The notes beneath the pieces are model-generated. The model searched no databases. It was given only the letters and a program-made list of their open reading frames with translations, and was not told the DNA's origin. From Pelobium sp. (lineage in GTDB: Bacteria > Bacteroidota > Bacteroidia > Sphingobacteriales > Sphingobacteriaceae), in assembly GCA_965218985.1 (NCBI GenBank), contig CBDCMP010000004.1:330869-394868 (forward strand): a stretch of 64,000 nucleotides of DNA, read 5' to 3'. Position numbers and translations under genes: made by a program. Below, in pieces: positions 12,969-43,694 of the stretch (position 1 is the first letter of the stretch; the number at the start of each line of letters is the position of its first letter).

Positions 12969-12985
12969 CTCCTTATCGGCAGGCG

Positions 12986-17367: not shown

Positions 17368-19032
17368 CTAATAGTAAATTTGAAATATCTGAACAATAGA
17401 CTGCTGTGTAGTTTTATTATAACTAATCTTCCCCACATTATCGTAATTTTCTATCCCACCAGTAGGTCTGTTCAAAGTATTTACATTAAATACATCCGAA
17501 GAAACCTGCTCTCCACCAATATTAATAAAATTACTTCCCGAGATGGACATCGTACCTCCCAAATAAGTCACCAGCTCAATGGTATAATTACCCGTGATCG
17601 GTTGGCCGTACCATGCAGCATAAAGAAAAATATCAATGAGATTGTTTGTTTCTGGGAAAGCTTCAATGTATTTCTTAATACCTATTAAAACTCCTTCATA
17701 ACCAGAATACCCCATGTTGTCCGTAGCCCACCATAGGTAAGCGTCAGATTGGGGAGAAATCACTCTGGGTACCGTTGCACTTTGACCGAAACCAACATAT
17801 AATCCATCTACAGAAGTACCAGTGCCCTCATACGCTACTAAAACATCCAAATCTTTCCCAGCCCCATCCAGCCAGCCAAACCTCACGGTCATAAAATCAA
17901 ACTGATCAATTATAATTTGTTCTGTTCTATCGACAATTTCCACTTCATAAGTTATATTCATCCCACCATAATCTGCAAATACATTCCCTAATAGGCTATC
18001 GTCAACAACATCATTGGCAAAAACTGTTAATTTATTTCCAACAAATCCTGCTCTGTCAGGAATCGAAAATGAGAAAACGGATTCGTTGGTTTTGTCAAGG
18101 CTCGTACCGTCACTAAAGTTTGCATACAACCTAAAAGTGTTTTCTGTGCTTCCCTCATCTACCACCGTAGGCCCATTTAAGGTTAAGGATATCAACACTA
18201 CAGGACTGGTGTCAATGATAAACATAGGATAATCCATGCTCAATCCTGCGTAAAAACCGGTAACTTTTGAACTGATGCTGTCACCGTTGACGGTATTTGC
18301 AAATATCCTGAGCTTATTGTTTACAAAGCTCCCCCTATTGCTTGCCAATAGCGTAAAAACAGATTCAACTGTTTTATCTATCTTACTTCCGTCATTATAA
18401 TGTGCAAATAAAGTGTAGGTATTCTCCGTACTTCCCTCGTTAACATTCAGCGGTCCAGAAATTGATATAGAGGTTAATGCAATGGGCGTAGTATTGATCA
18501 CCGTAATTTGCTTTGTGAGCGGAGGCCTACCATTTTTCAAGGCAGTAATTGTTACCTGACGGCTATCATTGACAATGTCATTATTTGCTGCTGTATATAC
18601 GTTCCCATTGAAAGCCCCTTCCGAACTGGTAAAGATATACTCATTAGTGGCATCCCTAACCATTTCACCATTATACATAGCACTAACCTGATAGTTGACC
18701 GTTTGCCCTTCGTTGACGAGGGAAGGCCCGCTAAGAACGAAAGAATCGGCGTTATTGACATTTAGAAAGGAAAAATATTTTACTCCGGACCAACCTGCAG
18801 CTGTTAAAATCCTAGCCCCAATAGCATAAGCACCGTTAGCTATTTGTAAGTCGAGCTGAAAGTTATCCCAGGAAGCAATCAACACCCCATCTAGAAACCA
18901 CTCACTGGCAATAACAGTATTTTTATCAGATTCACTATTAAAAAGCAGTTCGAAACTAGGTTGTTGAACAGCATACACTTCTTGGCCATTTACAGAATAA
19001 GCAGGCCCTACAAAACATATATCATTACTCAT
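17368..19032 (-). CDS. Ig-like (BIG2-type) repeat protein, phage-structural-like
   Basis: Three ~80-aa repeats starting (L/I)xGPxxVxEG; no signal peptide. Confidence 0.65.
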   Translation of the reverse strand: MSNDICFVGPAYSVNGQEVYAVQQPSFELLFNSESDKNTVIASEWFLDGVLIASWDNFQLDLQIANGAYAIGARILTAAGWSGVKYFSFLNVNNADSFVLSGPSLVNEGQTVNYQVSAMYNGEMVRDATNEYIFTSSEGAFNGNVYTAANNDIVNDSRQVTITALKNGRPPLTKQITVINTTPIALTSISISGPLNVNEGSTENTYTLFAHYNDGSKIDKTVESVFTLLASNRGSFVNNKLRIFANTVNGDSISSKVTGFYAGLSMDYPMFIIDTSPVVLISLTLNGPTVVDEGSTENTFRLYANFSDGTSLDKTNESVFSFSIPDRAGFVGNKLTVFANDVVDDSLLGNVFADYGGMNITYEVEIVDRTEQIIIDQFDFMTVRFGWLDGAGKDLDVLVAYEGTGTSVDGLYVGFGQSATVPRVISPQSDAYLWWATDNMGYSGYEGVLIGIKKYIEAFPETNNLIDIFLYAAWYGQPITGNYTIELVTYLGGTMSISGSNFINIGGEQVSSDVFNVNTLNRPTGGIENYDNVGKISYNKTTQQSIVQIFQIYY

Positions 19033-19097
19033 TATAACACTATTTAGAAATGGAACTGATAAAGTTCCGTTTTATAATTAAAAGAGCGTACAGCAAC

Positions 19098-20234
19098 CTA
19101 AAGTGACGCCGGAAAAACAGTACGCTCGTTCTCTATGTTGATCATGGTTTTGTCCGTACCATAGGTAACCCAGCTGAAGTCTGCCCCATTTACGCTTACG
19201 GCTACAACATTCATGAGGTGAGAGAGATCAATCGTCATTCCTCTCCATCGGAAATGTGGAGGTATGGCGGATTGATCCAGCGTAATGGTTGCCACCTTCG
19301 TTAAAGGGTCAAAAACCATTTCCTTCGTTGTAAATTCTTTGGTCAAACGATATTCCTCTGCTTCTCTGCGGGAGACCACCCATAACCTATCATTGGCCAC
19401 ATTTTGAACGTAATCCATAAAAGTTGTAAAGTCTGCAGCTGTCCATGCATGGGCACCAATCTGCCATATCATATTGGTGGTGGCATTACTCAAATTCAAT
19501 AATGCATGAAGCCTTGTTTTTATCCAGATCACGTCAGCTGCATTCCAATCCTCAGTGAAATTCCTATGAATTTGAATAAACCCGTCTGTAGGCAAGGAGT
19601 TAAAATCAGTAAAAGATCGCAAATCCTCTGATTTTGACCAGTTTTCATTGTTAGGATAGATAGGAAGCCCATCTTTTGCTCCTTGTGTAATCGCTCCTAA
19701 AAAACCTAATTCCTTCGCTGCTTTTGCATAAAAAGAAAAATTGGATACGACCACATGCATGTTCATCAAATACCCCATCCTTTCGTAGATAAGGTTCTGA
19801 AAATTCGTTAAGTCCAGTTTTGTTTCCTCTAAAGAATTTAATTGCTTATGATAATCCGAGTGATTCTCCAAATCCCAACCTTTTGTTACCAAAGCAGTTT
19901 GTTGAGCATAAGTATTTTTCCCTATCAACGCCCATTCCGCACCATTGTAATCATTATGGCCAAAAGTTCCCAATGCAGCCCGGTAGCCTATATTTTGGCC
20001 ACATCCATTGGAATAATGACGGCTTGACATCACCTGCTGTATGCTGGTCGCTTCAGGATAAGAATCATCCCAGGTAGTGCATAAAATGGCTTGTTTAAGA
20101 TATTTCACATTGGCGAAATCAGCTGACAAAGCCGCATTGTCACCACTAAACTGTATGGTAATGATAATGGTGTCGGATGGTACAGGTGTCACCTGCCCCG
20201 TAATCCCAACCTTACGTCCTTTTACTATGATCAT
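19098..20234 (-). CDS. Polysaccharide deacetylase (CE4/NodB-like) domain protein
   Basis: TTWDDSY motif 1 and LENHSDYH (H-S-x-x-H) motif 2; no signal peptide. Confidence 0.65.
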   Translation of the reverse strand: MIIVKGRKVGITGQVTPVPSDTIIITIQFSGDNAALSADFANVKYLKQAILCTTWDDSYPEATSIQQVMSSRHYSNGCGQNIGYRAALGTFGHNDYNGAEWALIGKNTYAQQTALVTKGWDLENHSDYHKQLNSLEETKLDLTNFQNLIYERMGYLMNMHVVVSNFSFYAKAAKELGFLGAITQGAKDGLPIYPNNENWSKSEDLRSFTDFNSLPTDGFIQIHRNFTEDWNAADVIWIKTRLHALLNLSNATTNMIWQIGAHAWTAADFTTFMDYVQNVANDRLWVVSRREAEEYRLTKEFTTKEMVFDPLTKVATITLDQSAIPPHFRWRGMTIDLSHLMNVVAVSVNGADFSWVTYGTDKTMINIENERTVFPASL

Positions 20235-22665
20235 TATGGTTTAGCTATATTACTTACTTCGATTGCCATAGAACATATCCCTGCATTAAATACACCACTT
20301 GTCTTATGGACAATAATGTCAGCCGTGGTCATCCCATTGCTTATATTTTTAAGCTCTGCAAGGTTGGTCCCCTGAAAATTCCCGCCGCCAATGGTTTTGT
20401 TTACCAATTGGCTACCTGAAGAGTAGCTCATTACAGCTGTGCCCAAATCAGTAGTATTACCCATGATATAAACCGTATAAAATAGGTTAGGATCAAGTCC
20501 GGAAAGACGTATCAGCCCGTTTGAATTCACATCAGATTTCATCAAACCGGAAATGATCACAAAATCGGGATAAATAGCAGATCCTGAAGGGTTAGGCGCA
20601 TAAAAGGAGTTTCCTGATTTGTCAAAATTTTCCAGATACAACGATATTCCCGTAATTTCAAGCTCCGGCGTTGACCTGAGCCCGTTCTTTTGATAAGCAC
20701 CACCGCTAATCAAAGAAGTAGGAACTTTCGCCATATTCCATTCGCCATCATCAGTCTGTGGCAGGTATTCGTTAGAAAAATTGATCAATACCGAAGTGTT
20801 AGGAATATAAACCGGCGGATCTCCCAAGGTCAATACCGTTTCAGGATCCCATGTACTTGTAGTATAGCCTGCCTTGACTGCCCTCAATCTCAAATAATAA
20901 TTCGTTCCCGGAGTTAAATTCCCTACGGTGAATTGTAGCTCGATTCCATTGTAAATAGTAATGGCATCACTGTAATCTGAATTATGAGCCAATTGGAGTT
21001 CATACACTACGCCTTCAGATAGGTTTGAAGGGGCAGTAAATGTATTGGATATTTCTGTTTCACCTGTAGCTACGCTGGTAAGAACTGGTGTTTCCAGATC
21101 TTGAGTAAAATTATTGCTTACTTCTATCACCAGTGAACAAAGTCCAGCATAATATGCTCCACTCAATTTGCTGATTGTAATATCTACAGAGGTTTGCCCG
21201 GCACTGAAATCTTTAAATTCTACAAGATCCACCAACTGGTAATTATTGCTGTACAATAGTTTTGGTGATGGACTGGCTCCCCATACCGTATACTTTAGTA
21301 CCGCAGTATCATCCAGTGTACCTGTATTTCCCATAAGATAAACATTGTAAAATTTACCGGGGTCCAAACCATAAAGCCTAACTCAGATCCATCAGAATTG
21401 GTAGTTGTTTTAACTAATCCAGAAATAATCACAAAGTCAGGATAAATTGCAGATTCACTGGGGTCTGGAGGATAGAACGAATTTCCAACGATCTCGAATC
21501 CTTCTATGTAAATTGATATTCCCGTACTTTCCATACGCTCTTTATCCCTGAGATCTGTTCGGGTGTAACTATTCCCTTGCCCAAAATCATCTGCCGTTAT
21601 CTTTAACATGTTCCATTCCCCATCATCTGTTTGCGGAAGGTATTGGTTTGAAAAATTGACCAATACCGTGGATTCCAGCGTATAGCCCGGTAGCGTACCT
21701 CCCGTGGTCACTGCCACAGATGCCCATAGACTCCGTGAATAGCCGGTTCGTGAAGCTCTTAATCTCAGGTAATAAACACTTCCAGGAACGAGATCAGTAA
21801 CATTAAACGTGGTATCCTCTCCACTATAAATGGTTTGAGTATCACTGAAGTTTGATTTTGTTGCAAGTTGCAGCTCATAGCTTACAGGTCCATCGGTATT
21901 TACCGGAGGAGAAAAAACATTTGAAATCTCTGTTTCACCGATTGCTGTGCTTTCCAATCCAGGAGCTGCTAATAAGGGGGTACTCTGCCCTACCTGCCAT
22001 ACTAATTCTGATGTCAAGACCTTACTTCCATCGTCGACCCATCCAGGAAGGCTTTGCAAAAATTCTTTGAACTTCACTTTAATTGGATCGTTGATAGTGC
22101 CTTCTCCCGAAAAATCATCACTACCAAAATTGATTGGGCTCTTTGTTTTTAATGGGTCTGCCTCTGATCCAGTACCTTGGAAATCTGTATCCGCAAAAAA
22201 TATTTTCGTCGCATCAAATTTTGCTTCAAGTGCGTTAGGTTGTACTGCTTTGTTGTTTATTATACCCAACAGTGTTTCCTCTATAGAAGCAAAATCAGTT
22301 AAATTACCTCCGCCTATAACCCATGCTGAATTCGTATCATCCCAAATATATCTTAAAATCTCTGCACCTGAACCTGGGTCCACATTAGCATAATCACCCA
22401 CATTTGCCGTAGGAAAAGCAGACTGTAGAGCTTGAAGAGATAAAAACACTCCCTTAAAATGGGTTTCTAGCGTGTTGATTCTTTCTTCTATCTCATCATA
22501 GTCACTTGTTAATCTTGTGATTTCTTGCTCATATCGATCTCTTACCGCCTTAATCAATTCTTGCAAGTCTCTACCGCTGGTCTTTGAGGGATCAGGAGTT
22601 CCTACTTGGTTATCTTTGATGACCTCATCTATATAACCGTCTTCAATTTTTTCTATATCTGGCAT
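20234..22665 (-). pseudogene. Phage-fibre-like protein with two FN3 + beta-sandwich repeats, ~810 aa, split by one frameshift at ~21385
   Basis: ORFs 21295-22665 and 20234-21367 join as ...SDGS/VRLYGLDPGKFYNV, matching LIRLSGLDPNLFYTV in the second repeat. Confidence 0.7.
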
Positions 22666-22685
22666 AACTTATGAATTTTATGGAT

Positions 22686-25600
22686 TTAAATAGTTATTTC
22701 CTCATCAATCAAATTAAACAAGCCTGAAGCGTTCTCCACTTTCACCTTGAAACGGTGATAAATTGGATCTCCATCTTCGTCTTCAGTCGCTAAGGGCTCA
22801 GTGAGGTCATAGCTCATCGGACCATCGTCCGCATCACTTTCTATCTTCGTTATATGATTCCAATTACCTGAATTGTTTTGCTTATATAAATAATAAGTGC
22901 CCTTAAAGATTGTTGGTTCCCAAACCAATCGATTATTACTGTTATCGTAACTCAGCTCAGGCGCCTGCGGATTGGTGGCATCTATCAACTTCACTGCAAT
23001 GACATCAGAGAGCGGTGAACTAATCTCTTCCTGTTGATGATCTTCATTATTGATAAAAGAAATGAAAGCTAGTCGGTAATACATCATCTCCCCATATGGG
23101 ACAACGGTTAAATCCTGAAAAGTGTCCACCACTTGTAAATCAAGGATCTCGTTATCAAACGGCGCATCCATAAAGGATTCCATTGCTTCAGGCGGAGAAG
23201 TTTTTTCGGGATTTCTAGTCCTATAAATCCTGACAGATGAAACAGCATCGTTTTCAGAAACTGGCGAAAGATTAAAACCAACTTCTGGTTTTCCTTCTGC
23301 TCCCAGTTGATGGTAATTAAGTGACCTGATAAGCGGTTTCTCTAAAAGAGATGTTTTCAATATCTGCACCGGTCCAGCAAAAGGGCTTAAAGATCCTGCA
23401 ACCAATTGTTCTGTAGTTTCTGCGGCTGCATAGAAATAGAGAAAACGAGAGTTAGCCCCTAAGCTGTAATCCGTAAATCTGATGTAGTAACCTTCCTGAT
23501 TCGAATATTTTCTTATCATTGGATAAGGATTGAATGTAGGGTTAGAAGGCACTAGTAAATTGCCATTGACATCTCTTATAACAGGGGTTTCATTCTTAGT
23601 CTGTTGTCCTGATTTTATGAACGCATAAATAGGAACCTGTTCCGTTAGCGGCAACAAAGTAGACCGTATAGCTTCCTGATATTTTTCTTTTTTTAGATCA
23701 ATGCTATCACCCTGCATTGTGAGTCCCTCTTTATCTGGATCCGGAAATCCGAAAGGTGCGGGTTCCGCTGGATAAACCTTAAAATGTCCATTGTTGGTTT
23801 CGTCGAAGACTACATCTGCAAGCTCAAGAAAACGTTGGTCATAAAAATCGTCCGAAGTAAGGGCAGAGAGACCTTCCAATAGGGTGACAATTGTTTGCGA
23901 ACTGTACAAGGATCTTAAAATATCTTCATTGCTAGTTCTATAAAAATGAAAACCAAAAGGATTTCTAGACGTACCATTTCCATTTCTTGGTATACCTACA
24001 TCAAAGGTAAAGGATGCTTTCCCTAATGCATCTGGTCTCACTTTCAGGCCAAAGTATTGAGGTTTTTCGGGCATCTGTGGCTCTAAAACCTTTCGAGACA
24101 TTAAAATAGCCGGAGAAGAGATCAAGGAAGTGAAACCAGACCCACCTACTCTTGCATCTACAGATTGAAGAGCCATCATGGTTTTTTTCTCCATGTCCTG
24201 TCCAGTCGGATCTATATTCGTCCGATTAAATATATTGGGCAGAGGCTCGGTATAAATATAAGCTCTATACCCAGGATGAAAGTTAACACCCTGAATTTTA
24301 TCTTGTGCGCCGGATGAAATTTTCAAAGGGGAGTTCTGATACCCCGGATAAGAGACATAAAGAACCAATGGATTGGTTTGTACAATTCTGTTCACCTCCA
24401 ATAAGACTTTGTCGCTTTCATCTGCCAAAGGCACTCGTAATAATCCCTTATACCATTCCACATAGGGCATCTGCAAAGTTCTCGGGTCATTACCTTCCGG
24501 AGCAGAAGCATCGAAAGGTAAATTGGTCTGCAGATTTGTCGGCAAGTTAATTCCCGCATCATAGGTGATGCTGTAAAAGCCAGGAATATCCTCAGTGCCA
24601 TCATTCAAGGGGGTAATTAATGCATTTCCTGTAATCCCACCTACCCATAAAGAAGTGATGTTCCCTTCGCTGTCACTCACTGATTCTATAACGGCATTCT
24701 GAGGATCGCTGAAATCTGCAAGCAGAATCTCGTTCTCTAAAGCCTGCCAGTTTGCTGGCTTACTAAGATTCTCCGTGATGGTAAAACGGCTACTGATCAC
24801 GGGAGAGCGATCATAATCCCTATGAATAAAAGAGCCAGGTTCTTCCTCATCCTCTACGTTCTCTGTATCTTTAATCTTTTCAATGGTAATGTTTGGGTTT
24901 GTGCCTTGGCCAATAGCAATTACCCTAAACTGTCCCGAATCGGTTGTCAATACAGCATTTACATATTTTGCGATTGCTGTTTCATCAGTGATCGGTGTTA
25001 TTGGTGCGCCTGCCAAGGATTCATAACTGTTTGTAAAAAGTATAAGCTGTTGAGGTTGTCCTTCCACTTCCTGAATGGCACTAACGATGCCTTTTAATTC
25101 TGATGGTGCCTCCTGCCTGAAAAACAGCTTGATACGATCTGCTTTTACAACACGTTCTGCGAGAATACCTGTATCATCCTGCAAATGGCTGATATCCATG
25201 ATATCCAACCAATTGAAACAGATACGTGTAAAGGAAGTGTCATCGGTTGGGAAATAACTACTTCTTCCTGCCAGCCAGTCTTGCTCTCTCTGGGTGGTAA
25301 AAAGCAAAGTCTGCTCTTTTTGTATATATTGTACTGCCATGTCGCTAGGCGGAAGCAGGGTGTTTTGCTTGGTAAAAACAGTTTCATCCGTGGCCACTTC
25401 ATCACTTCTCAATGATACCCGCGAAAACAGATTGATGCCGTAAATCGCATAAAAATGCACTCCGGGCTGTTTTTCTAAATGTACGTATAAACTCTCGGTA
25501 TCATCCGGAACAGGCGCAGTTTCAGGTAATCCGCCATTCGGATAATCGTCATCATAATCATAATACTGGTGTCCTTCTGAATTTTCATTGGTTATTTCAG

Positions 25601-27564
25601 GTTTGACATAACGCTGCTGTGAGGAAGAACGGTATTCGATACCGTAAAGCACCGGCTTGCTTTTTTCAAAGATATTAAAGGTATCTACTGAAGTAGAGTC
25701 CTCAAAAAAATCATCCTCTTCTTGCTCAAATGAATATTTCGCTCTTCCTATATTTACCATTCTAACATCAGAAACCATAGAGTACCCTTGTTCGTCAAAA
25801 GCGGTAAAGGTCTGTTCATCGGTTCGGGGCAGGCTGTAGGACAGAGCCCTGATCTGTGGCTTTTCTGGCAGCCTAGCATTGGATTTTCCAGTAGGTAGGC
25901 TTAAATAACTATATGCTTTTGTTCCCGTGGATCCTATTTCTTTTTTGTTGCTGTAACGTATTCTATAAACAAATTTTTGATTTTCTTCGGCAGGGGGCAA
26001 TTTATCAATATATCCCAATCCCAGCATGCGAGCCAAGTGGTAATCCAATGCCTGAAGATTCAACATATCCAGATAGCTGACCAAAAACACCTGATTTTCT
26101 TGCTCAGGGTCTGGATTTTCTTGTTCCAATTCCCCCGTGGCTCTTGGGTCGGTCTCGCTATAGGCCAGGTAATCCTCTACCAAATCTTTGATAGAGGGGT
26201 CTGTTGGGTAACTTACATTCCACTTGTCCTTGTAATTTTGGCTTCTTATCCTTGTCCCTTCATTAAAATGAGGCCAGAGGTTATCTATCGGTTTATCAGC
26301 ATGCTCTAGTCTTTGATATACCTCTTGGTCATCCAGTGAAAGTGCAAACCCATTTTCAATCTGCTGCCAAGAATTGCTATCCCTACTTGCCAAAAAATCA
26401 TCATAGGTTTCAAATGCAAAACTTTTAAGAAAGCCTCCAGAAACAAAGTATCTTACTTTGTTGATATTTTCCCCCAAGTAACTCTTAGTTATTAAAGGCG
26501 TATTCGAAATGATGCTGTCACGTATTCCAATAGTTTCTCCGTCAAGGGTACTGATGGCTTCAAGTTTTATGGAAGACTCGGCAGAATTATTATCTTTATT
26601 TAAGACGATTTCAAAAGCAAAAATATTCTTCTGGCCAAAATCCAGTTCCAAAAGCCCCTCATAAGCCATTAAAAAGCTTTCTGGGTCGGTAGCCGCATCT
26701 ATTGTTGTTGCTATCTCATCATAATGATCTTGATCCTTGAAATGTAAGCTGACACGATTGGTATACCAAAGTATCATTTACAACTGCAGTCACCACAAAA
26801 GTCCAGTTCTTTATCCGATAATTCACTACAGGTCGGGCTGTAGAAAAATCCAAGACTGATCTAATTGGTTGAAGATAAGGTGTTCTTTCTAAAATGATAA
26901 AATCATCATTCTTATTGTACCCAACTTCGCTTTGAGCATAATTTCCTTTAGGAAAATGATATTCCCCCAATTCACCAGCAAGATTCCATCTCAAATGCAC
27001 TCCTGCCACACTTCCATCAGCACCATCAGAACCTGCCGCTTGCAGATACAATTCACTGGAATTATTATAATAGCTGCTCACCACATCATTTCCACATGGG
27101 TTCAGTCCTATCTCTTTCAAATATCCCTGTAATTGATCGAAAGAATCTAACACAGGAAAAAGAGCTTCGTCGATTGCTGCGGCAAGTTCAGCACTGATCT
27201 CATCCTTTCTTCTTGAAAGCTCTGTAAATACATTAAGTATCGTACGAAACCTTGAGCTATACCCTGTGTTCCGGCTATCTAACAGCCCTGTAAAAAAGTC
27301 ATATTCAGAGAAATCAATATCATCAAAATCACCTTTCAGGTAATTTTCTATAACATCGTCGTTCCCATCTATTACCCCCAATACCATTAGGGTACGGCTA
27401 TATAATCTTTGTAGCTCATCATTTTCGAGGATACTGAGCAGCGATTTCACTTCTTCTTCAGAGGCAAAACCTCCTGCTTCCTCCATTGCCTGTATAGCAA
27501 ACAAGCAGGTGGCCATCTGACTGTAATCAGCATAAAATGCATAGGAATTGAACGATTCAGGCAT
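22686..27564 (-). CDS. Large hypothetical protein (~1625 aa) with C-terminal FN3-like modules; annotated as two overlapping ORFs because of a frameshift at ~26760
   Basis: 26719-27564 and 22686-26777 overlap; reading ...VNDTLVY/TNRVSLHFKD is continuous; no signal peptide. Confidence 0.7.
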
Positions 27565-27596
27565 AGCTTTTTTTATTTTGTTTCTTCCCTTACTAA

Positions 27597-33998: not shown

Positions 33999-34004
33999 AA
34001 CAAT

Positions 34005-34769: not shown

Positions 34770-37537
34770 TATTTATCTTTATTTAAGTTTCCGAAATGAA
34801 TATGGTTTTCATGTTTTATCAACGGAGTTACATTTTTAAGATTTGCATACTTAGATTTTGTACCTACATAGATCGTATGGAATTTATAAAATCTCATAGC
34901 ATCTATAATAGTCTGATTATTTAATATAGCCTGCTTATATTGTGCGTCATCTACATCAGGGATTTCTTTATTTGCCATAAAATTTTGATAGCGCATATCG
35001 AAAGATGCGCCACTCGCATGTGCTACGCTAGGATAACATGTCCCATTAGAATAAGCTCCACCATTAAAATAATGGGTAAATTGGATAGTTTTTATTAATC
35101 CACCTAAAAAGGCGGCCATCACCTTGGGTGCTAAATACAGCCTTTCAGTGTGGATCAATATTGTTAGGGTTTGATTATTTATTATAAATGTCAGTTTTCT
35201 TAATTTTTCTCCATTAATTATAACTACTTGGAAAAGGTTAGGGTCGAATCTTACCATAAATATTTTTTCTCCTGAATAGGCGTATTTTGTGATTTCACCT
35301 CCATTATTATTTGTTACCCAAATATCCTTATTATTATAATAATAAAAATCATAGATAGTATTTTCACCCGCTAAACCATCTTTTTTAGTCCCATTTGGAG
35401 GTACTGAAGTATATAAAGGAGCTCCTCTATAAGGTCTTTTTATTCCGTTTGAAACGCCCTCTATCTGAATTACCTCACACTCGCAAATCGGATACTCATT
35501 ACCATTTTCATGATGGTATATATATTTTATTAGACTTCCCAGAGTTCCCGCTGTTATATCATTAACCTGTAACACTTCTCGCTTATTATGATATATATGA
35601 AACTCAACCTGATTTGTGGCATCAGGAATTTTATTAGCTGAAAAGTCTTTGGAATTGTAGAAGAACCTATCCATACTGTAAACAATAATAGGCGAACCTG
35701 ATTTGGTAGGCGCTGCATAAGCCAAATCACCATTGCTATCCAAACCCTGTACTTTTAACTGATATTGATATATTGGTAAAGAAACCTGAGTTGAATCGGT
35801 GTAAAGTGCAGGAGCGTCTCCATACGGCTCTAAAAATAAATAGGTGTGATGTCCACTGTCTAAGGAATAAGCGGCTGTTTTAACTGCTTCCATTTCAGCC
35901 ACTGTTAATCCTAAAAATAAAGCAGATTCTCTTTCTTTTAAAGTATTGCTCTGGCAATTCGTAATACTTATTATCTTGATGTCCTCCTCATGTGGTCCAC
36001 TGCTATCCTTATTCTCAAACAGCCTGGTTTCAATTGTTAAATACCTGCCTATCTTATCTGAAAAAGCTTTGCTGTTCAAATCCAGCTTGCTCACCTTGAC
36101 AGGCTTGGGGTACTTTAATCCTGTGGTTCTGTACTGAACCTTTAAATTTGAATAGAATAATACTGCTGCTTCATCCCAAAATGCACCATTGTTAGCTATG
36201 TATTTGAACCCTCCTTCATGATTATTGTTATTCAATTCTTCACCGATGTATACCGGATTTGAATTCTCTGCCTCTCTCAATTTTGAAGTGGGGTTGTTGA
36301 AATCATCAGGGATCAGATTTATGGAACAAAAAGCATGGTCATAATACCTGTTGTTTCTCACAAATGGGCTTGGGGAAGTTTGGTCTATGGCAGAATGAAA
36401 ATAGTGCATTTTGACATAATACGGCTTCGATGGAATGGTAAGGTCGATATATTTTGTCCATCCGGGATTAGTATCATCAATCAAATCATCAAAAAAAGGA
36501 GTGTTTTGATTTTTTGATTTTAAACTTTTTGATTCAATATAAATTAACGGTTTGATATTTCCATCTGTACGTAGTTTAAAGCTAAGATTGGTAATGTTTT
36601 CTAAGTAAATGATTGGCCAGCCTTCAGTATCGTAATTTTGGGATGTAGTGTTATGATTTAAAGCGATATATTGGTAATCCTGATAATAATTATAGGAATA
36701 GCCCTGGTCACTTCTGATGTCCAGATATAATCTATCTTTGGTAAAAAATTTAGAAAGAACATCTGTATATAGTTCAGCTTCCTTTTTTTTGATGGTTGTT
36801 TTGGTCTGACCAGAATAAGTGGAGGTGTTCACTCCTGTTTTTTGGTATGATCCAAAAAAAGCTGTAGGATCAACGAAAGCCAAGATGGCTTCCTTTTTGG
36901 CTCTCAATGTTGATCCCGTTAAGTTGCTAACATCTATGACTGTTTGGTTATTTTTAACAAATTCTATGTCGACAGTAATTTTTTCAGGTTCTAAAATGAT
37001 TTCAAAACCGGTTTCTCCAGTAACAGATGAAACAAATTCACCAAACCATTCCCCTTCCTTTATTTGAATCGGAGCTATGTTTATGTCTGAACTCCTGAAT
37101 ATCTCATTGATGCTCTTATCGGTGGACATGGAGTTGGTGTAGCCTAAAATCCCTGCTTCATATAATTCAACATCTAATCTCGCATTATATATTCTTTGGA
37201 TGAATTCATTGTTTGTTGAACTCTTTTGCACTATAGCCGTACCATCGGCTTTTAATAGACTTACTTTTAAGATTCCCCTGTATATATAATATTTCACTTT
37301 GGAATTGACTTTCTTGGAGCTTGAGATAGGTTCTAATATCACATTGACCAAAGCAGGATTTTCATTAGATTCTTGGACAACCATCATACAGTCTTCACAT
37401 GCAAAGGCCGCGGCATCTTCTTCTAACTGAAACCTTGAAGTCACATTATACTTGGTGGTTTCTTCACCATCCATTGGCCCATATTTATCGGATGGGCTCT
37501 GTACGGGCAGTTTGGTATGGTCAATGAAGAAATGCAT
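34769..37537 (-). CDS. Putative polymorphic toxin, 922 aa, conserved N-terminus plus C-terminal LAS (M15/M74-like) Zn peptidase (allele 2)
   Basis: HASGASFD (H-x6-D) and HENHIH (HxH) near the C-terminus; no signal peptide. Confidence 0.7.
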   Translation of the reverse strand: MHFFIDHTKLPVQSPSDKYGPMDGEETTKYNVTSRFQLEEDAAAFACEDCMMVVQESNENPALVNVILEPISSSKKVNSKVKYYIYRGILKVSLLKADGTAIVQKSSTNNEFIQRIYNARLDVELYEAGILGYTNSMSTDKSINEIFRSSDINIAPIQIKEGEWFGEFVSSVTGETGFEIILEPEKITVDIEFVKNNQTVIDVSNLTGSTLRAKKEAILAFVDPTAFFGSYQKTGVNTSTYSGQTKTTIKKKEAELYTDVLSKFFTKDRLYLDIRSDQGYSYNYYQDYQYIALNHNTTSQNYDTEGWPIIYLENITNLSFKLRTDGNIKPLIYIESKSLKSKNQNTPFFDDLIDDTNPGWTKYIDLTIPSKPYYVKMHYFHSAIDQTSPSPFVRNNRYYDHAFCSINLIPDDFNNPTSKLREAENSNPVYIGEELNNNNHEGGFKYIANNGAFWDEAAVLFYSNLKVQYRTTGLKYPKPVKVSKLDLNSKAFSDKIGRYLTIETRLFENKDSSGPHEEDIKIISITNCQSNTLKERESALFLGLTVAEMEAVKTAAYSLDSGHHTYLFLEPYGDAPALYTDSTQVSLPIYQYQLKVQGLDSNGDLAYAAPTKSGSPIIVYSMDRFFYNSKDFSANKIPDATNQVEFHIYHNKREVLQVNDITAGTLGSLIKYIYHHENGNEYPICECEVIQIEGVSNGIKRPYRGAPLYTSVPPNGTKKDGLAGENTIYDFYYYNNKDIWVTNNNGGEITKYAYSGEKIFMVRFDPNLFQVVIINGEKLRKLTFIINNQTLTILIHTERLYLAPKVMAAFLGGLIKTIQFTHYFNGGAYSNGTCYPSVAHASGASFDMRYQNFMANKEIPDVDDAQYKQAILNNQTIIDAMRFYKFHTIYVGTKSKYANLKNVTPLIKHENHIHFGNLNKDK

Positions 37538-37598
37538 CGGACAAAAAATTTAGACCTTGAAATATGGGATCAAATTAGCTCATTGATGAGGCATTGTC

Positions 37599-37618
37599 AA
37601 TACCACTAAAGTGGTATT
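37599..37618. promoter_or_regulatory. Palindromic operator-like site upstream of toxin allele 2
   Basis: AATACCACT-AA-AGTGGTATT overlapping a minus-strand TTGACA. Confidence 0.5.
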
Positions 37619-37653
37619 TTTAAGTGACCCGGACAGGGGGCTTATCTGTTTCT

Positions 37654-39975
37654 TTAAGGTGGTGTGGCCGGCCTGCGGAATTGGACAGGATCTGCATCAA
37701 CGACCGCAGCGGCATCCTTTATGTCCCTTTTCGGGGCGGGAAGCGTGCCGAAACGCCCAGACCGTTTTTCAATGGTCAGGCTGCCTCTGCCAGCCCCATC
37801 CCCACATCCACCACAAAGGCAGGGACCCCCGGGTTCAACCGCATGCCCGCACTTCCGGCTATTTTCAGCTTGGGCAGCGAAAAGTCTACCGAACCGGTAT
37901 ATTCGGACGAGGCCACCGAGCCTCCCGTTGTGGGATTGGCGACACTCAGGAAACCGCTCAGCAGGAAGGCTGCCTTTTCTCTGTCGCCGCCCGGTATCGG
38001 CCAGGTCTATCTCCAGCCGGTCGATGCTGATGAAATGGTCCAGTGCAAGATCATCAACAGTGAAATAATATTTGATCCCATTACCAGTGGTGTTTATCCC
38101 GGCCCTTCCGGTGTTCACCATGCCATCGAAAGAGAAATAACGGTAGCTGCGTTCCACGCCCCCCAGTTTTCTTTGGTAGGCCCCGAAAGCGATATTGCCG
38201 ACTTCCATGTTGACCGGCCCGATGTGCAGCCTGAAGGTTTTGGCCACCTTGAAGGACCCCCCTTCGAAACCGATCCTGCCGTCATCCCAGATGAGCAGTT
38301 TGGTGAGCTCTATGTTTTTGGGCAGGATGTCCCCCAGGAAAGGGATGTCTGCGATGAAGCTCAGCTGTCCGGAGATGGACACGTAATACCTGCCGTCTAC
38401 GCTGCCTGCCTGCGCACTGCGTATTTTTAATTCGAAGACTTCTGGAAAAGTAATGGTATAGGGTTCGGATCGGGGTAAAGCTTTGATGGTGAAATCGCCA
38501 TTGTCCCTTATCGCTGCTTCTATGGCCATCTCTGCCAGGCCGCCACCTGATGCCGTGAATTTGGGGATGGTGATTTTTCCTGTGATAAAGGAGTTGATGA
38601 TGGCATTCTGCCGGAAGGTGATGGAAAATTCATCCAGCTCGACAGCGAAATTGCCAAATTTTCGGTAAAGTTTGCCATTAGCTTCCAAACCGATAGTGCC
38701 AGAAACACCTCCTGTGCCAATCAATAAATCATCTGCAAAAATTGCGGCACTGGTGTTCACGGGATTGGGCTGCCCGAATTTTCCAAATTCTATGGTTGCA
38801 TGTTGCACATACAAACCCACAAAATCAACAGGGTAACCCGCTGCGTCTGCCTCGGGGATGTTTGAGGTGGTGCTTGCGTCCAGTTTCGCATAGGTGAAGC
38901 CGATGATGAGACCTGTATTTGCAATCTGGGCTTTGGGAGTGTCTGGATGGAAGCTGATGGCCAAGGTTTCCTGAAAACCGAAACCTGCCCTGGAATCGAA
39001 ATAAAACTCTCCTGCATCAAAGATCAGCTTTGTTTTAACATCTCCAGGGATGATTTCATTATTTGAATTTAGAGGGATTAAGGCACTTCTTGGTATTTCT
39101 AAACCTGCGGAAAGCTGGGCGGTAGCTGAGATTTGGGGGATGAGTAAATCTTTTATAAAACCTATGGCATCATTACCGAAGAATCGTGAAAAGATATCAT
39201 TGACACTTTGTATGGCTATTTCTACACCATCTTCTAAATACATTTCAAAAATCGCTGTAAAAATGTTAATACCAGCACCTGCAAAAGCTGAAACAATATC
39301 TAAATATGCAATTTGTGGTTCGCTGTTTAGAGGTTGGGTGATAGCTAAAGTAGGATACTTTACTTTCGCATCGGTAACAAATTGCTCTAATTGACCACCA
39401 TCTAATTCAAATAGAGAACCTGTAAAAGTATCTGGAATATAATCATAGGTGGCCGTGAACTCCTGAACAGGAACAGGCCCTGGATCTGGTGAATCTGCTA
39501 AATCTTCTTCTTCCTCGGTATATTCTATAGGGTTTAAACAAAAATCTAAGATATGGCCAAATAAATCTTGACCAGAATGGTTAGTGATTTGTAGAAATAA
39601 ATCAAAGAAGGCACTTGGTTTGAAGGCAAAAGCTGAGCTTTTAAAAACAGAAATGTAATTTAAGATCTCCCATTTCCATGATAGAGAAATGGGAATTACA
39701 CTGAAATTTGAACTTGCTCCCCCTGCCTCAAGATCTGGATTTAAAATGAGCACTAAACCTGTGCCCGGAATTTCTAATTTTAATATTTCAGAAAAACTTA
39801 TCAGTTCTAACTCGTAGAATGCGCCAGAATTTGTCAATGAATGATTTACCTGTAAACTTCTAAAATAGATTCTGTCTAAAAGTGTGCTTAATCCATTGTT
39901 AATAAAACTTAGGTCGGGCGGTAATTGATCTAAGTTGAAAATTGATGATAAAGGAGAATAAAATATTTCTGCCAT
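37654..39975 (-). pseudogene. Truncated second copy of the giant protein (first ~730 codons, frameshift at ~37999)
   Basis: Near-identical to 27597-33998 from AIGFIKDLLIPQI to IDRLEIDLA, then an extra C and degeneration. Confidence 0.85.
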
Positions 39976-39997
39976 GATAATTTACTTTTACATGTAA

Positions 39998-40741
39998 TTA
40001 AGGTTTCAACTCTTTTATTTTAATCTCACCACTTTCTGATACCGTTATACTGTATTTTTGATAAAAATTTTCTACTCCACCCTCACCCCCTTCAAAAACA
40101 AATACTTTTATTACTTTATCAATTCCGATAAAAAAAAATCTCTCTTCATCATCATAAGGCTCACTAATAATACTGTGAATGTTAATTATTTTAGCAGTCT
40201 TAGAAACGGCATTATATAGAATTAAACTCCCTGAAGTTTCAAGACGTCTTTTATCATAATCAAAATTTGAGGGATAAGTCGTAGCTAAATTTTCAGTTAT
40301 TTGAGCATAATAACATTCATAAGGACCTATATTCTCAAATTTATATCTTATATAATTACTTTCGTTTGTTAAAGAATCTATAAAAGGTTTACTGTATTTT
40401 AATTTGATTGAGTCTATTTCTAATATTTCTGGTTTAGGTATGATTTTTAAATTATTTATTGATTCATAATAGCGATATATTTTTAAATTTAAATCATTTA
40501 CATTTTTCCATTTAGGCGAGTCCCATCCATATGACGTGTCAAGATTCTCTAAATAAATACTCCCAAATGGGAGTTTTCCGTTCAATTGATAAATCCCAAG
40601 ACTATCTTTAACTTGATTTGGAATTGAATTAGTTATTGCATTTTTTTTTGCTTTAACTAAATTCTTTTTTTCATCCGTTTTAATATTACTATTACAAGAA
40701 AGAATGGGAATTAACATCCATAAATAATTTAATTTTTTCAT
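39998..40741 (-). CDS. Lipoprotein, putative immunity protein (allele 1)
   Basis: MKKLNYLWMLIPILSC lipobox; shares LPFGS(I/V)YLENLDTSYGWDSPKWKNVN with allele 2. Confidence 0.7.
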   Translation of the reverse strand: MKKLNYLWMLIPILSCNSNIKTDEKKNLVKAKKNAITNSIPNQVKDSLGIYQLNGKLPFGSIYLENLDTSYGWDSPKWKNVNDLNLKIYRYYESINNLKIIPKPEILEIDSIKLKYSKPFIDSLTNESNYIRYKFENIGPYECYYAQITENLATTYPSNFDYDKRRLETSGSLILYNAVSKTAKIINIHSIISEPYDDEERFFFIGIDKVIKVFVFEGGEGGVENFYQKYSITVSESGEIKIKELKP

Positions 40742-40743
40742 GA

Positions 40744-43539
40744 TTAATACTCGGCCAAATTTCCAAAATGTATATGATTATTATGATCATCATAAGGAGT
40801 TACATTTTTAAGCGCTTGATATTTGGATTTCTTTCCAACATAAATAGTTTGAAATCTATAAAACCTCATAGCATCAATTACGGACTGATTGTGTAATATT
40901 GCTTGTTTGTGTTGTGGTGTTTCCTCACCATCATTTAAATCTGGGATTTCATTACCTGCTCCAAAATCTTGATAACGCATATCATATGAAGCACCACTTG
41001 CATGAGCTACACTAATGTAACAGGTTCCATTTGAATATGCTCCACCATTAAAATAATGTGTAAATTGAATGGTTCTTATTAATGCCCCGAGAAACGCGGC
41101 CATGACTTTTGGGTTAAGATACATTCTTTCACTTTTGGTTAATATTATTAAATTTTGGTTATTAATTGGGAACACAAGTTTTCTAAATTTAACTCCATCT
41201 ATATAAACTTCTTGAAAAAGACTAGGGATGAATCTAACCATGAACACCCTCTTATTTAAACTTTCGTATTTAATAATTCCATGAGTGCCATTATCAGTAA
41301 CCCAAATATCTTTATTCGCATAGTAATAAAAATCATAACTTGTATTTTCACCCATTAATCCGTCCTTTTTAGTGCCGTTTGGAGGCACTGAAGTAAATTT
41401 AATCCTATTTTTCCTATCTAAATACTTGTTCCCATTTGAAACACCATCAATTTCTATTATATCACATTCACAAATTGTATACTCATTTCCATTTTCGTGA
41501 TGATAAATATATTTAATTCTATTACCTGATTGTATATAAGAAGGGGTCATTTTACCTTTTTGAAATACTTCACCTTTATTGTGATAAATATGAAACTCAA
41601 CCTGATTAGTGGCATCAGGAGTTTTATTAGCTGAAAACTCTTTGGAATTGTAGAAGAACCTGTCTATACTGTAAACAAGAATGGGCGAACCTGATTTGGT
41701 AGGTACAGCATAAGCCAAATCACCATTGCTATCCAGACCCTGTACTTTTAACTGATACTGATAAACTGCAAGGCCCACATTAGTCACCCCATCGAAATAG
41801 ACCGGTGGGCCATCCTGACCCAGATAAGGCTCTAAAAATAAATAGGTGTGATGTCCACTGTCTAAGGAATAAGCGGCTGTTTTAACTGCTTCCATTTCAG
41901 CCACTGTTAAACCTAAAAATAAAGCAGATTCCCTTTCTTTTAAATTATTGGTCTCGCAGTTCGTAATGCTTATTATCTTGATGTCCTCCTCATGTGGGCC
42001 ACTGGTATCCTTATTCTCAAACAACCTGGTTTCAATTGTCAAATACCTGCCTATCTTATCTGAAAAAGCTTTGCTGTTCAAATCCAGCTTGCTCACCTTG
42101 ACAGGATTGGGGTACTTTAATCCCGTGGTTCTGTACTGTACTTTTAAATTGGAATAAAAAAGCACTTTACCCTCATCCCAAAACGCACCATTGTTAGCTA
42201 TGTATTTGAACCCCCCCTCATGGCCATTGTTATTCAATTCTTCACCGATGTAGACCGGATTTGAATTCTCCACTTCTCTTAATTTTGAAGACGGACTACT
42301 AAAATCATCAGGGATCAGATCTATCGAACAAAAAGCATGGTCATAATACCTGTTGTTTCTTACAAATGGGCTTGGGGAAGTTTGATCTATGGCAGAATGA
42401 AAATAGTGCATTTTGACATAATAGGGCTTCGATGGAATGGTGAGGTCGATGTCTTTTGTCCATCCGGGATCAGCATCATCAATCAAATCATCAAAAAAAG
42501 GGGTATTTTGATTTTTTGATTTTAAACTTTTTGATTCAATATAGATCAAGGGTTTGATGTTGCCATCTGTGCGCAGTTTAAAGCTCAGATTGGCAATGTT
42601 TTCCAGGTAAATGACCGGCCAGCCTTCAGTTTCGTAATTTTGGAATGTAGCGTTATGATTTAAAACGATATACTGGTAATCCTGATAATAATTATAGGAA
42701 TAGCCTTTGTCACTTCTGATGTCCAGATACAACCTATCTTTGGTGAAAAATTTAGACAAAACATCCGTATATAATTCAGCTTCCTTTTTTTTGATGGTTG
42801 TTTTGGTCTGACCAGAATAAGTGGAGGTGTTCACCCCTGTTTTTTGGTATGATCCAAAAAAAGCTACCGGGTCAACGAAAGCCAAGATGGCTTCCCTTCT
42901 GGCTCTCAACGTTGATCCCGTTAAATTACTAACATCTATGACTGTTTGGTTATTTTTAACAAATTCTATGTCGACAGTGATTTTTTCAGGTTCTAAAATG
43001 ATTTCAAAACCGGTTTCTCCAGTAACAGATGAAACAAATTCACCAAACCATTCCCCTTCCTTTATTTGAATCGGGGCTATATTTATATTTGAACTTCTGA
43101 ATATTTCATTGATGCTCTTATCGGTGGACATGGAGTTGCTGTAGCCTAAAATCCCTGCATTATATAAATCAACATCTAATCTTGCATTATATATTCTTTG
43201 GATGAATTCATTGTTTGTTGAACTTTTTGGCACTAAAGCTGTTCCGTCAGCTGTTAGTAGACTTGCTTTTAAAATCCCCCTGTATATATAGTATTTCACT
43301 TTTGAAGTCACTTTACCGGAGCTCGAAACAGGCTCCAGAATGACATTGACCAGTAAAGGGTTTTCATTCGATTCCTGCACTACCATCATACAGTCTTCAC
43401 ACGCAAAGGCTGATGCATCCTCTTCTAACTGGAATTTAGAAGTCACCTTATATTTGGTGCTTGCTCCACCATCCACCGGCCCATATTTATCTAATGAGCT
43501 TTGTATTGGCAGTTTGGTATGGTCAATGAAGAAATGCAT
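40744..43539 (-). CDS. Putative polymorphic toxin, ~931 aa, LAS Zn-peptidase C-terminus (allele 1)
   Basis: ATG start at 43539 by alignment with allele 2 (MHFFIDHTKLP); HASGASYD and HNNHIH motifs. Confidence 0.7.
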   Translation of the reverse strand: MHFFIDHTKLPIQSSLDKYGPVDGGASTKYKVTSKFQLEEDASAFACEDCMMVVQESNENPLLVNVILEPVSSSGKVTSKVKYYIYRGILKASLLTADGTALVPKSSTNNEFIQRIYNARLDVDLYNAGILGYSNSMSTDKSINEIFRSSNINIAPIQIKEGEWFGEFVSSVTGETGFEIILEPEKITVDIEFVKNNQTVIDVSNLTGSTLRARREAILAFVDPVAFFGSYQKTGVNTSTYSGQTKTTIKKKEAELYTDVLSKFFTKDRLYLDIRSDKGYSYNYYQDYQYIVLNHNATFQNYETEGWPVIYLENIANLSFKLRTDGNIKPLIYIESKSLKSKNQNTPFFDDLIDDADPGWTKDIDLTIPSKPYYVKMHYFHSAIDQTSPSPFVRNNRYYDHAFCSIDLIPDDFSSPSSKLREVENSNPVYIGEELNNNGHEGGFKYIANNGAFWDEGKVLFYSNLKVQYRTTGLKYPNPVKVSKLDLNSKAFSDKIGRYLTIETRLFENKDTSGPHEEDIKIISITNCETNNLKERESALFLGLTVAEMEAVKTAAYSLDSGHHTYLFLEPYLGQDGPPVYFDGVTNVGLAVYQYQLKVQGLDSNGDLAYAVPTKSGSPILVYSIDRFFYNSKEFSANKTPDATNQVEFHIYHNKGEVFQKGKMTPSYIQSGNRIKYIYHHENGNEYTICECDIIEIDGVSNGNKYLDRKNRIKFTSVPPNGTKKDGLMGENTSYDFYYYANKDIWVTDNGTHGIIKYESLNKRVFMVRFIPSLFQEVYIDGVKFRKLVFPINNQNLIILTKSERMYLNPKVMAAFLGALIRTIQFTHYFNGGAYSNGTCYISVAHASGASYDMRYQDFGAGNEIPDLNDGEETPQHKQAILHNQSVIDAMRFYRFQTIYVGKKSKYQALKNVTPYDDHNNHIHFGNLAEY

Positions 43540-43600
43540 CAGACAAAAAAATTTAACCTTGAAATATGGGGTCAAATTAGCTCATTGACCGGGCATTGTC

Positions 43601-43620
43601 AATACCACTAAAGTGGTATT
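43601..43620. promoter_or_regulatory. Palindromic operator-like site upstream of toxin allele 1
   Basis: Identical AATACCACT-AA-AGTGGTATT. Confidence 0.5.
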
Positions 43621-43694
43621 TTTAATGATCAGGACAGGGGGCCTGTCTGTTTCTTTTGGTGGTGTGGCTGGCCTGCGGAATTGGCACCCCCAAT

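Follow-up and report, generated by a model that had tools for sequence, protein, structure and literature searches.

The stretch analysed here, called the window throughout, comprises 64,000 nucleotides (nt) of contig CBDCMP010000004.1 from the genome of a Pelobium sp. (GCA_965218985.1), a soil-type member of the Bacteroidota. Its central part holds a tightly packed train of genes which, in the open reading frame (ORF) listing of the window, runs on the minus strand from 43684 down to 17368. The train encodes a candidate effector-carrier protein (A, present as the alleles A1 and A2), lipoproteins, two very large proteins (giant1 and giant2) and fibre-like accessory proteins. A preliminary description, made from the sequence alone, had proposed that these genes form an undescribed toxin-delivery locus. 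The locus is one copy of a widespread cassette around a DUF6603-type giant protein, for which no description was found in papers or databases. The features of this copy are as follows, with protein lengths in amino acids (aa).

43860-43994, minus strand: 45-aa remnant of a small gene, 47% identical over 43 aa to residues 84-121 of the protein encoded at L001:9439-9804 in a related locus (E 9e-12)
43540-43690, minus strand: leader of about 150 nt upstream of A2, at the left edge of a 6-kb repeat, holding the hairpin GACAGGCCCCCTGTC and the palindrome ACCACTTTAGTGGT
40744-43575, minus strand: A2, candidate effector-carrier allele with an N-terminal domain (N-domain) of about 640 aa and a LAS peptidase C-terminus
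39998-40741, minus strand: imm2, 247-aa lipoprotein with a signal peptide ending in ILSC, candidate immunity protein (family hidden Markov model, E 8e-99)
37654-39975, minus strand: truncated and frame-broken copy of giant1, a 773-aa ORF covering residues 1 to about 745, right arm of the upstream cassette
37538-37690, minus strand: second copy of the leader, upstream of A1, recognised by sequence conservation
34769-37537, minus strand: A1, 922-aa candidate effector-carrier consisting of the N-domain, a beta domain and a MepA-like LAS metallopeptidase
34005-34769, minus strand: imm1, 254-aa lipoprotein with a signal peptide ending in LLSC, candidate cognate immunity protein, whose start overlaps the A1 stop (TAATG)
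27597-33998, minus strand: giant1 ("C"), 2133 aa, DUF6603-type and without signal peptide, identified by its homologues and a weak DUF6603 match
22686-27564, minus strand: giant2 ("D"), about 1625 aa, split into ORFs of 281 and 1363 aa that are collinear with intact relatives
20234-22665, minus strand: fibre-like protein of about 810 aa, split into ORFs of 456 and 377 aa, with FN3 and PHROG minor-tail matches
19098-20234, minus strand: 378-aa accessory protein of unassigned function, an ORF without family match
17368-19032, minus strand: immunoglobulin (Ig)-repeat protein, 554 aa, whose C-terminal domain matches phrog_24956 (E 3e-18)

The start of A2 is probably the ATG at 43539, where the conserved MHFFIDH start is found, which gives a protein of 931 aa. 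From A1 downward the genes are separated by gaps of 0-65 nt, and the TAATG overlaps at 34769 and 20234 are both present, as had been described. It also holds that signal peptides are confined to the two lipoproteins, which have a lipobox (LLSC and ILSC), while the remaining N-termini are hydrophilic. The genes previously listed as encoding proteins of about 1625 and 810 aa are single genes in origin, but each is frame-shifted in the window (26745-26777 and 21381-21392, respectively). A scan for sigma-70 promoters and terminators gave nothing above shuffled sequences, with models that are not suited to Bacteroidota. A search for RNA sequencing runs that contain the locus yielded none.

Protein A joins a conserved N-terminal part to a variable end. 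In an exhaustive HMMER search with A1, 901 proteins matched the N-domain at E<=1e-3. Nearly all of them align to A1 residues 1 to about 640 and then diverge, with lengths of about 800-1500 aa. Besides LAS peptidases, as in the window, the C-termini that can be named are alpha/beta hydrolases of the Chlorophyllase, PAF-AH and Hydrolase_4 types, Peptidase_C15 with PF27118, DUF3289, Peptidase_M23 and He_PIG. One branch consists of proteins of 2300-2800 aa in which an S8 subtilase precedes the A domain. The toxin reading had been said to depend on alternative C-termini being carried by the same N-terminal domain, and such alternatives were found (LAS, M23, lipase-like, C15 and DUF3289). In Mucilaginibacter rubeus, an EndoU_bacteria nuclease forms the end of a 905-aa protein that is encoded between A and giant1. 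EndoU nucleases are a classic polymorphic-toxin domain.

The architecture of A1 comprises the N-domain (residues 1 to about 640), a beta domain (about 645-800) and the LAS metallopeptidase (about 800-922). An AlphaFold2 model of A1 was built from 91 sequences, with a predicted local distance difference test score (pLDDT) of 90.3 and a predicted template modelling score (pTM) of 0.84. When this model was compared with the PDB by Foldseek, the LAS peptidase MepA (1tzp_A) was the sole convincing match, with a probability of 1.00, and LytM matched more weakly. LAS metallopeptidases (MepA/M74 and VanY/M15, related to M23) are defined by an H-x6-D motif, a C-terminal H (H-x-H in MepA) and the LAS fold. 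The zinc-ligand pattern H840-x6-D847...H912-x-H914 of A1 has this form and is kept among the relatives that share the LAS end. By motif and modelled fold, the A1 C-terminus is thus a predicted peptidase of the LAS metallopeptidase type. Since a MepA-type fold and conserved zinc ligands coincide, this assignment is sound, and the peptidase part of the earlier claim of a peptidase toxin stands. A sequence-profile match for the peptidase domain was found neither in Pfam nor by PDB sequence search. A2 is 83% identical to A1 and has the LAS motif HASGASYD...HNNHIH.

The remainder of A1 is less easily placed. The N-domain has no structural match in the PDB above a Foldseek probability of 0.2, and a profile search found no PDB sequence relative for A. 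Against a viral structure library the A1 model matched peptidase and lysin domains only, and no VgrG-like match was among the Foldseek results. A further A-type gene is present in the same genome on contig C7 (C7:1066077-1068866). It encodes 929 aa starting with MNFFIDQ and is far from any giant gene. This orphan adjoins small genes that resemble, by eye only, mobilisation or relaxase genes, and these neighbours suggest carriage on a mobile element.

The distribution of A and giant1 shows that the two belong together. Giant1 was found in six of 301 evenly sampled Bacteroidota genomes, and the A N-domain was found in the same six, on the same contigs and within about 10 kb of giant1. In the window's genus, a giant1 match is present in 5 of 24 genomes. 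Because both proteins occur in the same genomes and adjoin each other, they make up a rare accessory module with strict linkage of its parts, and the co-occurrence of homologues, proposed as a check in the preliminary description, is thereby observed. The order A, giant1, giant2 recurs in 13 of 14 further loci. By their contig labels these 14 loci come from Segetibacter, Sphingobacteriales, Pedobacter, Flavobacterium, Tenacibaculum, Kordia, Chlorobiota, Rhodospirillales, Thermoanaerobaculia and Mycobacteriaceae, together with unlabelled metagenome contigs. Loci with the order A, giant, giant are labelled as five phyla. The earlier attribution to a system of Bacteroidota was therefore too narrow, as relatives are also found on contigs labelled Chlorobiota, Acidobacteriota, Alphaproteobacteria and Mycobacteriaceae. 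In M. rubeus, the genes follow each other as Ig-repeat protein, A-type protein, 905-aa protein, 121-aa protein, giant1, giant2, 332-aa protein and fibre-like protein.

A lipoprotein family accompanies LAS-type A genes at three loci. The two members in the window, imm1 and imm2, are 53% identical. Including these, the family follows LAS-type A genes in four cassettes at three loci: the window (twice), the paralogous locus of contig C7 (three copies) and the metagenomic locus L025, where a lipoprotein with 28% identity lies directly after a LAS-type A gene. Loci with other A ends do not have this family and carry other small genes. The pairing of LAS-type A genes with this family, proposed to be one of toxin and cognate immunity protein, is accordingly real, as the three loci show, but not universal, since the family is absent at two loci with a LAS-type A (Kordia and Thermoanaerobaculia). 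A different small gene, encoding a DEDD/RNase_T-like exonuclease of about 180 aa (ILVIDLEATCW), is located just upstream of giant1 in several related loci. It was seen among the small cassette genes of L026-L028 (contigs C45, C46 and C48 of the same-genus genome G015) and at L021:2091-2636, and its product could be an immunity or accessory protein.

The window contains two cassettes in tandem. The DNA at 43684-37796 repeats that at 37684-31811 with 79.5% identity and an offset of exactly 6000 nt. Identity is 78-98% over the leader and the A N-domain, drops to 51-77% in the block made up of the A end, the immunity gene and roughly the first 250 giant1 codons, and is again 76-93% over giant1 codons of about 250-730, where the upstream copy stops. 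The truncated giant copy is 79% identical to giant1 residues 1-674, with residues 662-745 following in another frame, and homology ends at 37796. The block of low identity (39225-41600 versus 33240-35600) takes in the first 250 or so giant1 codons besides the A end and the immunity gene, which could be due either to co-evolution of the giant1 start with the payload or merely to the position of the recombination breakpoints. Three cassettes of G015 encode giant1 proteins with identical N-terminal starts.

The second locus, on contig C7, is arranged in tandem in the same way, with an A pseudogene (four stops) and a truncated giant followed by A, three lipoprotein genes, the full giant1, giant2 and a fibre-type gene. 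The arms of the two loci are mosaic, with the truncated copy of the window 90% identical to the full giant of C7 and the full copy of the window 86% identical to the truncated copy of C7. G015 has at least three different cassettes between such arms, as three short contigs each lead from an A arm to a giant1 arm, with a different large protein and different small genes between them. The non-coding leader of about 150 nt precedes all four A genes with 90-97% identity, with copies also at C7:154580-154700 and C7:160889-161001, whereas the A proteins of the two loci are about 40% identical. It occurs in two variants, one common to the upstream cassettes of both loci and the other common to the downstream cassettes. 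In M. rubeus, the full 121-aa counterpart of the gene that survives in the window as a 45-aa remnant follows the 905-aa protein with the EndoU end and directly precedes giant1. The tandem repeat, the mosaic arms, the shared leader, the cassettes of G015 and the gene remnant are marks of repeated cassette gain by recombination. The leader might function as an operator or promoter, or else as a site of recombination. A structured RNA was considered and rejected, since the leader has no Rfam match and its RNA fold z-score of -0.86 is not unusual.

Family scans of the locus proteins covered Pfam, NCBIfam (ten proteins), PHROGs and PADLOC (nine proteins). The sole library matches were a sub-threshold DUF6603 match for giant1, FN3 and minor-tail PHROGs for the fibre-like protein, and the unnamed PHROG for the C-terminus of the Ig-repeat protein. 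For giant1, 120 homologues were found in a set of 5.8 billion proteins, all of them annotated as hypothetical and many from Mucilaginibacter, Pedobacter and Sphingobacterium. Some of these carry DUF6603 (PF20248), a family of no known function, with full-length ones at 42-46% identity in precomputed annotation. The giant1 of the window is aligned with the same portion of this model but scores 12.5 bits, below the cut-off of 27. No paper mentioning DUF6603 was found in a literature search.

Along giant1, a small N-terminal domain is followed by a helical region (residues 120-280), about 45 long antiparallel strands (284-1030), a variable middle and conserved C-terminal parts. An AlphaFold model of residues 1-1200 reached a pLDDT of 75.7 and a pTM of 0.43. 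In Foldseek comparisons it showed a weak beta-barrel or beta-belt likeness to LptD, the PapC usher, SlpA and ApoB100, with TM-scores below 0.25. The model weakly suggests a large antiparallel beta sheet or barrel and nothing more, and homology is not claimed. Giant2 is intact at 1625-1656 aa in the C7 paralogue and in the related loci L001, L002, L003 and L004, and is collinear there with both ORFs of the window. Its relatives carry Big_1, Invasin_D3 and PKD domains. Profile searches found no PDB sequence relatives for giant1 or giant2. The former description of giant2 as FN3-like was not upheld, since FN3 was found not in the giant2 of the window but in the fibre-like protein.

The fibre-like protein begins with a conserved N-terminal adaptor, followed by two copies of a module of FN3 plus beta structure. 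The FN3 part matches both FN3 in Pfam and the phage minor-tail PHROGs. The end of its 456-aa ORF continues, in another frame, into the repeat module of the 377-aa ORF. In relatives, the N-terminal 48-140 aa recur in one to three genes after giant2, while the remainder differs. The downstream fibre-type genes of relatives include phage tail-Collar domains in Tenacibaculum and a Shufflon_N adhesin tip in Pedobacter. The Ig-repeat protein is a regular member of Sphingobacteriia-type loci, with homologues at the upstream end of the C7 locus and of L001-L004, and has no sequence relative of solved structure. For the 378-aa protein no match was found in Pfam, NCBIfam, PHROGs, PADLOC or the PDB. It has a paralogue on contig C6 and is absent from related loci. 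Its previous reading as a CE4-like deacetylase relied on the motifs TWDD and HSDYH, noticed by eye, and was rejected because Pfam, NCBIfam and PDB sequence searches gave no supporting match even at lax thresholds.

The statement that no known delivery class can be recognised was corroborated, as Pfam, NCBIfam, PHROGs and PADLOC gave no family of type VI secretion systems (T6SS), extracellular contractile injection systems (eCIS), contact-dependent inhibition (CDI) or the C-terminal sorting domain of the type IX secretion system (T9SS). A, giant1 and giant2 match no T6SS, eCIS, Tc, CDI, T9SS, phage or defence family, and the giants, for which matches to T6SS, eCIS or phage structural proteins had been named as a possible refutation, thus gave none. 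The individual candidates were rejected one by one. For a T6SS, no TssB/TssC, Hcp or VgrG/PAAR match was found in the locus (Pfam, NCBIfam), and the genome, at a completeness of 94.6%, lacks VipB/TssC. For an eCIS or tailocin, the locus gave no match to sheath, tube, baseplate or AAA ATPase, and Phage_sheath_1 is absent from the genome. With neither TssC nor a phage sheath, the genome has no contractile machinery that could serve the locus. CDI by CdiA/CdiB was dismissed for want of any two-partner secretion (TPS) domain, filamentous haemagglutinin repeat or CdiB match in Pfam and NCBIfam, and T9SS cargo because the core proteins have no signal peptide and match no family of the C-terminal domain. 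A Tc toxin was rejected, since Pfam gave no VRP1, TcA, SpvB, TcdB_mid or RHS match and A, giant1 and giant2 matched no PDB sequence; the Foldseek matches that were listed include no structure of a Tc or Rhs protein, and Teneurin only at a probability of 0.12. A prophage was rejected in view of the housekeeping flanks, the lack of PHROG matches for A, giant1 and giant2, and viral matches of the A model at the peptidase level only. A known anti-phage defence system was rejected because nine proteins matched no PADLOC family.

The closest published concept is that of polymorphic toxin systems such as the CdiA, Rhs and MafB types (Zhang et al. 2012, PMC3482391), which covers the logic of the locus but not its proteins. 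Like these systems (PMC3482391), the locus joins a conserved N-terminal part to interchangeable C-terminal enzyme or toxin domains, and a small gene directly downstream, here of a lipoprotein family, goes with the LAS-type end at three loci. The locus also retains additional or displaced cassettes, its variable block lies between recombination arms, and an EndoU toxin end occurs in a relative. Unlike in polymorphic toxins, the A N-domain matches no trafficking domain. The Pfam and NCBIfam scans gave none of those of the type II, V, VI and VII secretion systems, PrsW, MuF or others, and A has no signal peptide, TPS, PAAR, VgrG, RHS, LXG or MuF domain. Further differences are that two conserved giant partners are always encoded alongside A, that duplication extends over a complete A gene and the 5' part of the gene after it, and not just over a 3' toxin tip, and that the candidate immunity gene is missing in some loci.

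Other systems share single traits with the locus. The Tc (ABC) toxins of Photorhabdus, Xenorhabdus and Yersinia resemble it in logic and size only, with three large signal-less components. The sizes are Tc-like at about 2100-2600 aa, about 1600-2500 aa, and about 900-1000 aa with the first 650 or so residues conserved and a hypervariable end. However, no relation in sequence or fold was found, the genes are ordered differently, the payloads appear to be antibacterial and directed at the envelope, and the locus has lipoprotein partner genes and fibre-like genes. With eCIS, tailocins and T6SS the locus shares the kinds of effector enzyme (peptidoglycan peptidases and lipases), each with a neighbouring candidate immunity gene, as well as fibre-like proteins with a common adaptor and variable tips, and structural parts without Sec signals. 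It differs from them in having no sheath, tube, baseplate, spike or AAA ATPase, and in a core of two giants of unassigned fold. The TANFOR-domain toxins of Bacteroidetes (PMC7073777) are likewise large polymorphic toxin candidates of Bacteroidota with variable C-terminal ends. The ten locus proteins gave no TANFOR-type match in NCBIfam or Pfam, although whether these libraries hold such a model was not checked. Keyword literature searches returned only general polymorphic-toxin reviews, eCIS papers and the unrelated TANFOR family.

Judged by sequence comparison and structure models, there is about an even chance that the locus is an undescribed, signal-less polymorphic effector-delivery system used for antagonism. 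In such a system, A would be a carrier whose conserved N-domain of about 640 aa docks to an apparatus and whose C-terminal end is exchangeable. The end of A1 and A2 would be a MepA-like LAS zinc peptidase that cuts peptidoglycan cross-links, and the lipoprotein, located in the periplasm of the producer, would neutralise peptidase arriving from sister cells. The giants would form the apparatus, with the run of long antiparallel strands over about 750 residues of giant1 as a candidate membrane-facing sheet or barrel and with giant2 supplying surface modules of the Ig/FN3 type. Target recognition may be provided by the fibre-like proteins, with their common adaptor and variable ends, and by the Ig-repeat protein. 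New blocks of A end and immunity gene would be gained by recombination between two conserved arms, which leaves tandem cassettes. One arm would consist of the leader and the A N-domain, the other of giant1 residues from about 250 to 730. The parts would assemble, leave the cell by lysis or another route, arrive in the periplasm of the target and kill it.

Several observations weigh against a delivery system. There is no recognisable export route, and for the majority of A ends, as for the majority of genes lying between A and giant1, no known toxin or immunity family was matched. The barrel likeness of giant1 comes with low TM-scores and a model pTM of 0.43. Of the six loci at which A is of the LAS type, two (L022 of Kordia and L023 of Thermoanaerobaculia) lack the lipoprotein family and have giant1 directly after A, which is unusual for a self-toxic antibacterial effector. 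Finally, the frame breaks in giant2 and the fibre gene may mean that the copy in the window is partly inactive, and as the giant2 break is repeated in an independent contig, this copy may not be functional.

The last point leads to an alternative that concerns this copy whatever the family does. It is a serious possibility, though held somewhat below even, that the window contains a decaying, non-functional locus and that the working copy, if there is one, is the C7 paralogue, whose giant2 is intact. The giant2 break near 26745-26777 may be real, since an independent contig of sequencing run X1, which is probably that of the source sample, is identical across it. Together with the break in the fibre gene, the truncated and frame-broken giant copy at 37654-39975 and the disruption of a nearby TonB-dependent receptor gene by an IS3 element, this fits decay. 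However, the break in the fibre gene near 21381-21392 coincides exactly with the site at which read contigs end. Moreover, the window differs from run X1 by compensating indels of 1 nt and 2 nt at 21251 and 21286, 35 nt apart, where the X1 version reads ...MGSQSITKTIV..., closer to the paralogous module (SGSQLVNKTI). The compensating indels and the better reading in X1 show that the assembly contains local indel errors. A1, A2, imm1, imm2 and the 2133-aa giant1 are all intact, and decay is also not peculiar to the window, given the upstream A gene with four stops at the C7 locus.

A bolder form of the delivery reading, which we put forward tentatively and consider somewhat unlikely, is that A, the giants and the fibres constitute a new class of translocation machine without a contractile part, nucleoside triphosphatase (NTPase) or secretion signal. 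In this form, the beta region of giant1 would act as an outer-membrane translocon in the target, the A N-domain would thread enzymes such as peptidases, lipases and nucleases, and the leader and the giant1 arm would serve as an integron-like capture site.

Another possibility, which appears improbable, is a role in intracellular conflict or abortive infection. The giants would sense phage or pore the cell's own membrane, and infected cells would be lysed by envelope enzymes (peptidase, lipase, patatin), which the lipoprotein or small proteins would restrain. No core protein has an export signal, the payloads are mostly envelope-attacking enzymes, and giant1 has a barrel-like beta region, all of which would suit such a role. 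The same is true of the patchy, island-like distribution (5/24 genomes of the genus, 6/301 of the phylum) and of the AbiEii, BrnT or helix-turn-helix genes that adjoin some loci. Yet there is no PADLOC family match, and neither an NTPase nor a sensor domain for nucleic acids was recognised. A lipoprotein in the periplasm is better suited to guard against an incoming peptidase than to control a cytoplasmic one, and fibre-like genes with Collar, Shufflon_N and FN3 ends point to recognition outside the cell. Moreover, an EndoU end with a small gene after it corresponds to the classic pattern of an intercellular toxin.

It is also distinctly unlikely that the products form a surface-attached or released lytic and adhesive complex for feeding on microbes or polymers, a device for predation or scavenging instead of a toxin system aimed at kin, in which the enzymes would be digestive and the lipoprotein would, in some lineages only, serve self-protection or anchoring. 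A repertoire that attacks cell wall, lipids and proteins (LAS, M23, lipase-like and S8 fusions, with GH46 and patatin as neighbours) is compatible with feeding, as are the absence of the lipoprotein from two loci with a LAS-type A and the adhesion-type Ig, invasin and PKD domains of giant2 relatives. Tandem cassettes, recombination arms and diversified pairs of A ends and small genes are, however, the signature of an arms race, and an EndoU nuclease end has no digestive logic. Furthermore, the signal peptide and the T9SS C-terminal domain, the usual marks of secreted hydrolases in Bacteroidota, are lacking.

A prophage remnant or domesticated non-contractile tail or baseplate, with A as a tail-associated lysin and the giants as fused tail or baseplate proteins, is very improbable: it could draw on the PHROG matches of the fibre-like protein (minor tail, FN3 part) and of the Ig-repeat C-terminus, on the Collar domains of a relative and on the fact that tail-associated lysins often bear LAS or M23 domains and need no immunity gene, but A, giant1 and giant2 have no PHROG match, the A model matches viral structures at the level of the peptidase domain only, no capsid, portal, terminase, tube or sheath gene is present in the window or related loci, the flanks are housekeeping genes, and the compact cassette is kept across phyla without phage context.

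The surroundings of the locus were also inspected. The upstream flank comprises genes for a methyltransferase, an RF-1-domain protein, a cytidylate kinase and an M23 peptidase. Downstream, a gene for a DUF3103-like membrane protein is followed by a TonB-dependent receptor gene split by an IS3-type insertion sequence. The first of these (15623-17197) lies directly after the Ig-repeat gene on the same strand and encodes a 524-aa protein with a DUF3103 match and, by eye, several N-terminal membrane-spanning segments. Contig C7 carries a paralogue of it at another place, while the related loci have no counterpart, and it is therefore probably outside the system. The IS3-family element (12180-13282, inside 10574-14990) consists of an HTH_Tnp_1 ORF and an rve integrase ORF. 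It is located between the pieces of the TonB-dependent receptor (Plug and barrel) and a DUF4249 gene, and this position indicates that the receptor gene is disrupted. Farther away, Rfam group II intron domain matches at 58725-58844 and 60485-60560 (RF01999, 76 bits; RF00029, 66 bits) bracket a 431-aa ORF at 59179-60474, which fits a group II intron.

The window is a suitable entry point to this family of loci, as it offers a recognisable MepA-like payload, a clear lipoprotein partner and a paralogous locus for comparison, and it adds two side-by-side alleles with visible recombination arms. Should defence or feeding prove to be the function, the conserved module of three genes for giant proteins, present in hundreds of species, would still constitute a real knowledge gap. 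If the delivery reading is true, the locus would represent a new route of protein delivery from bacterium to bacterium, beside the numbered secretion systems, the contractile injection systems and the Tc toxins, in several phyla of soil and water. It would then bring with it three very large protein families without known fold and a large reservoir of unexplored enzymes that target cell walls, lipids and nucleic acids, together with their matching inhibitors.

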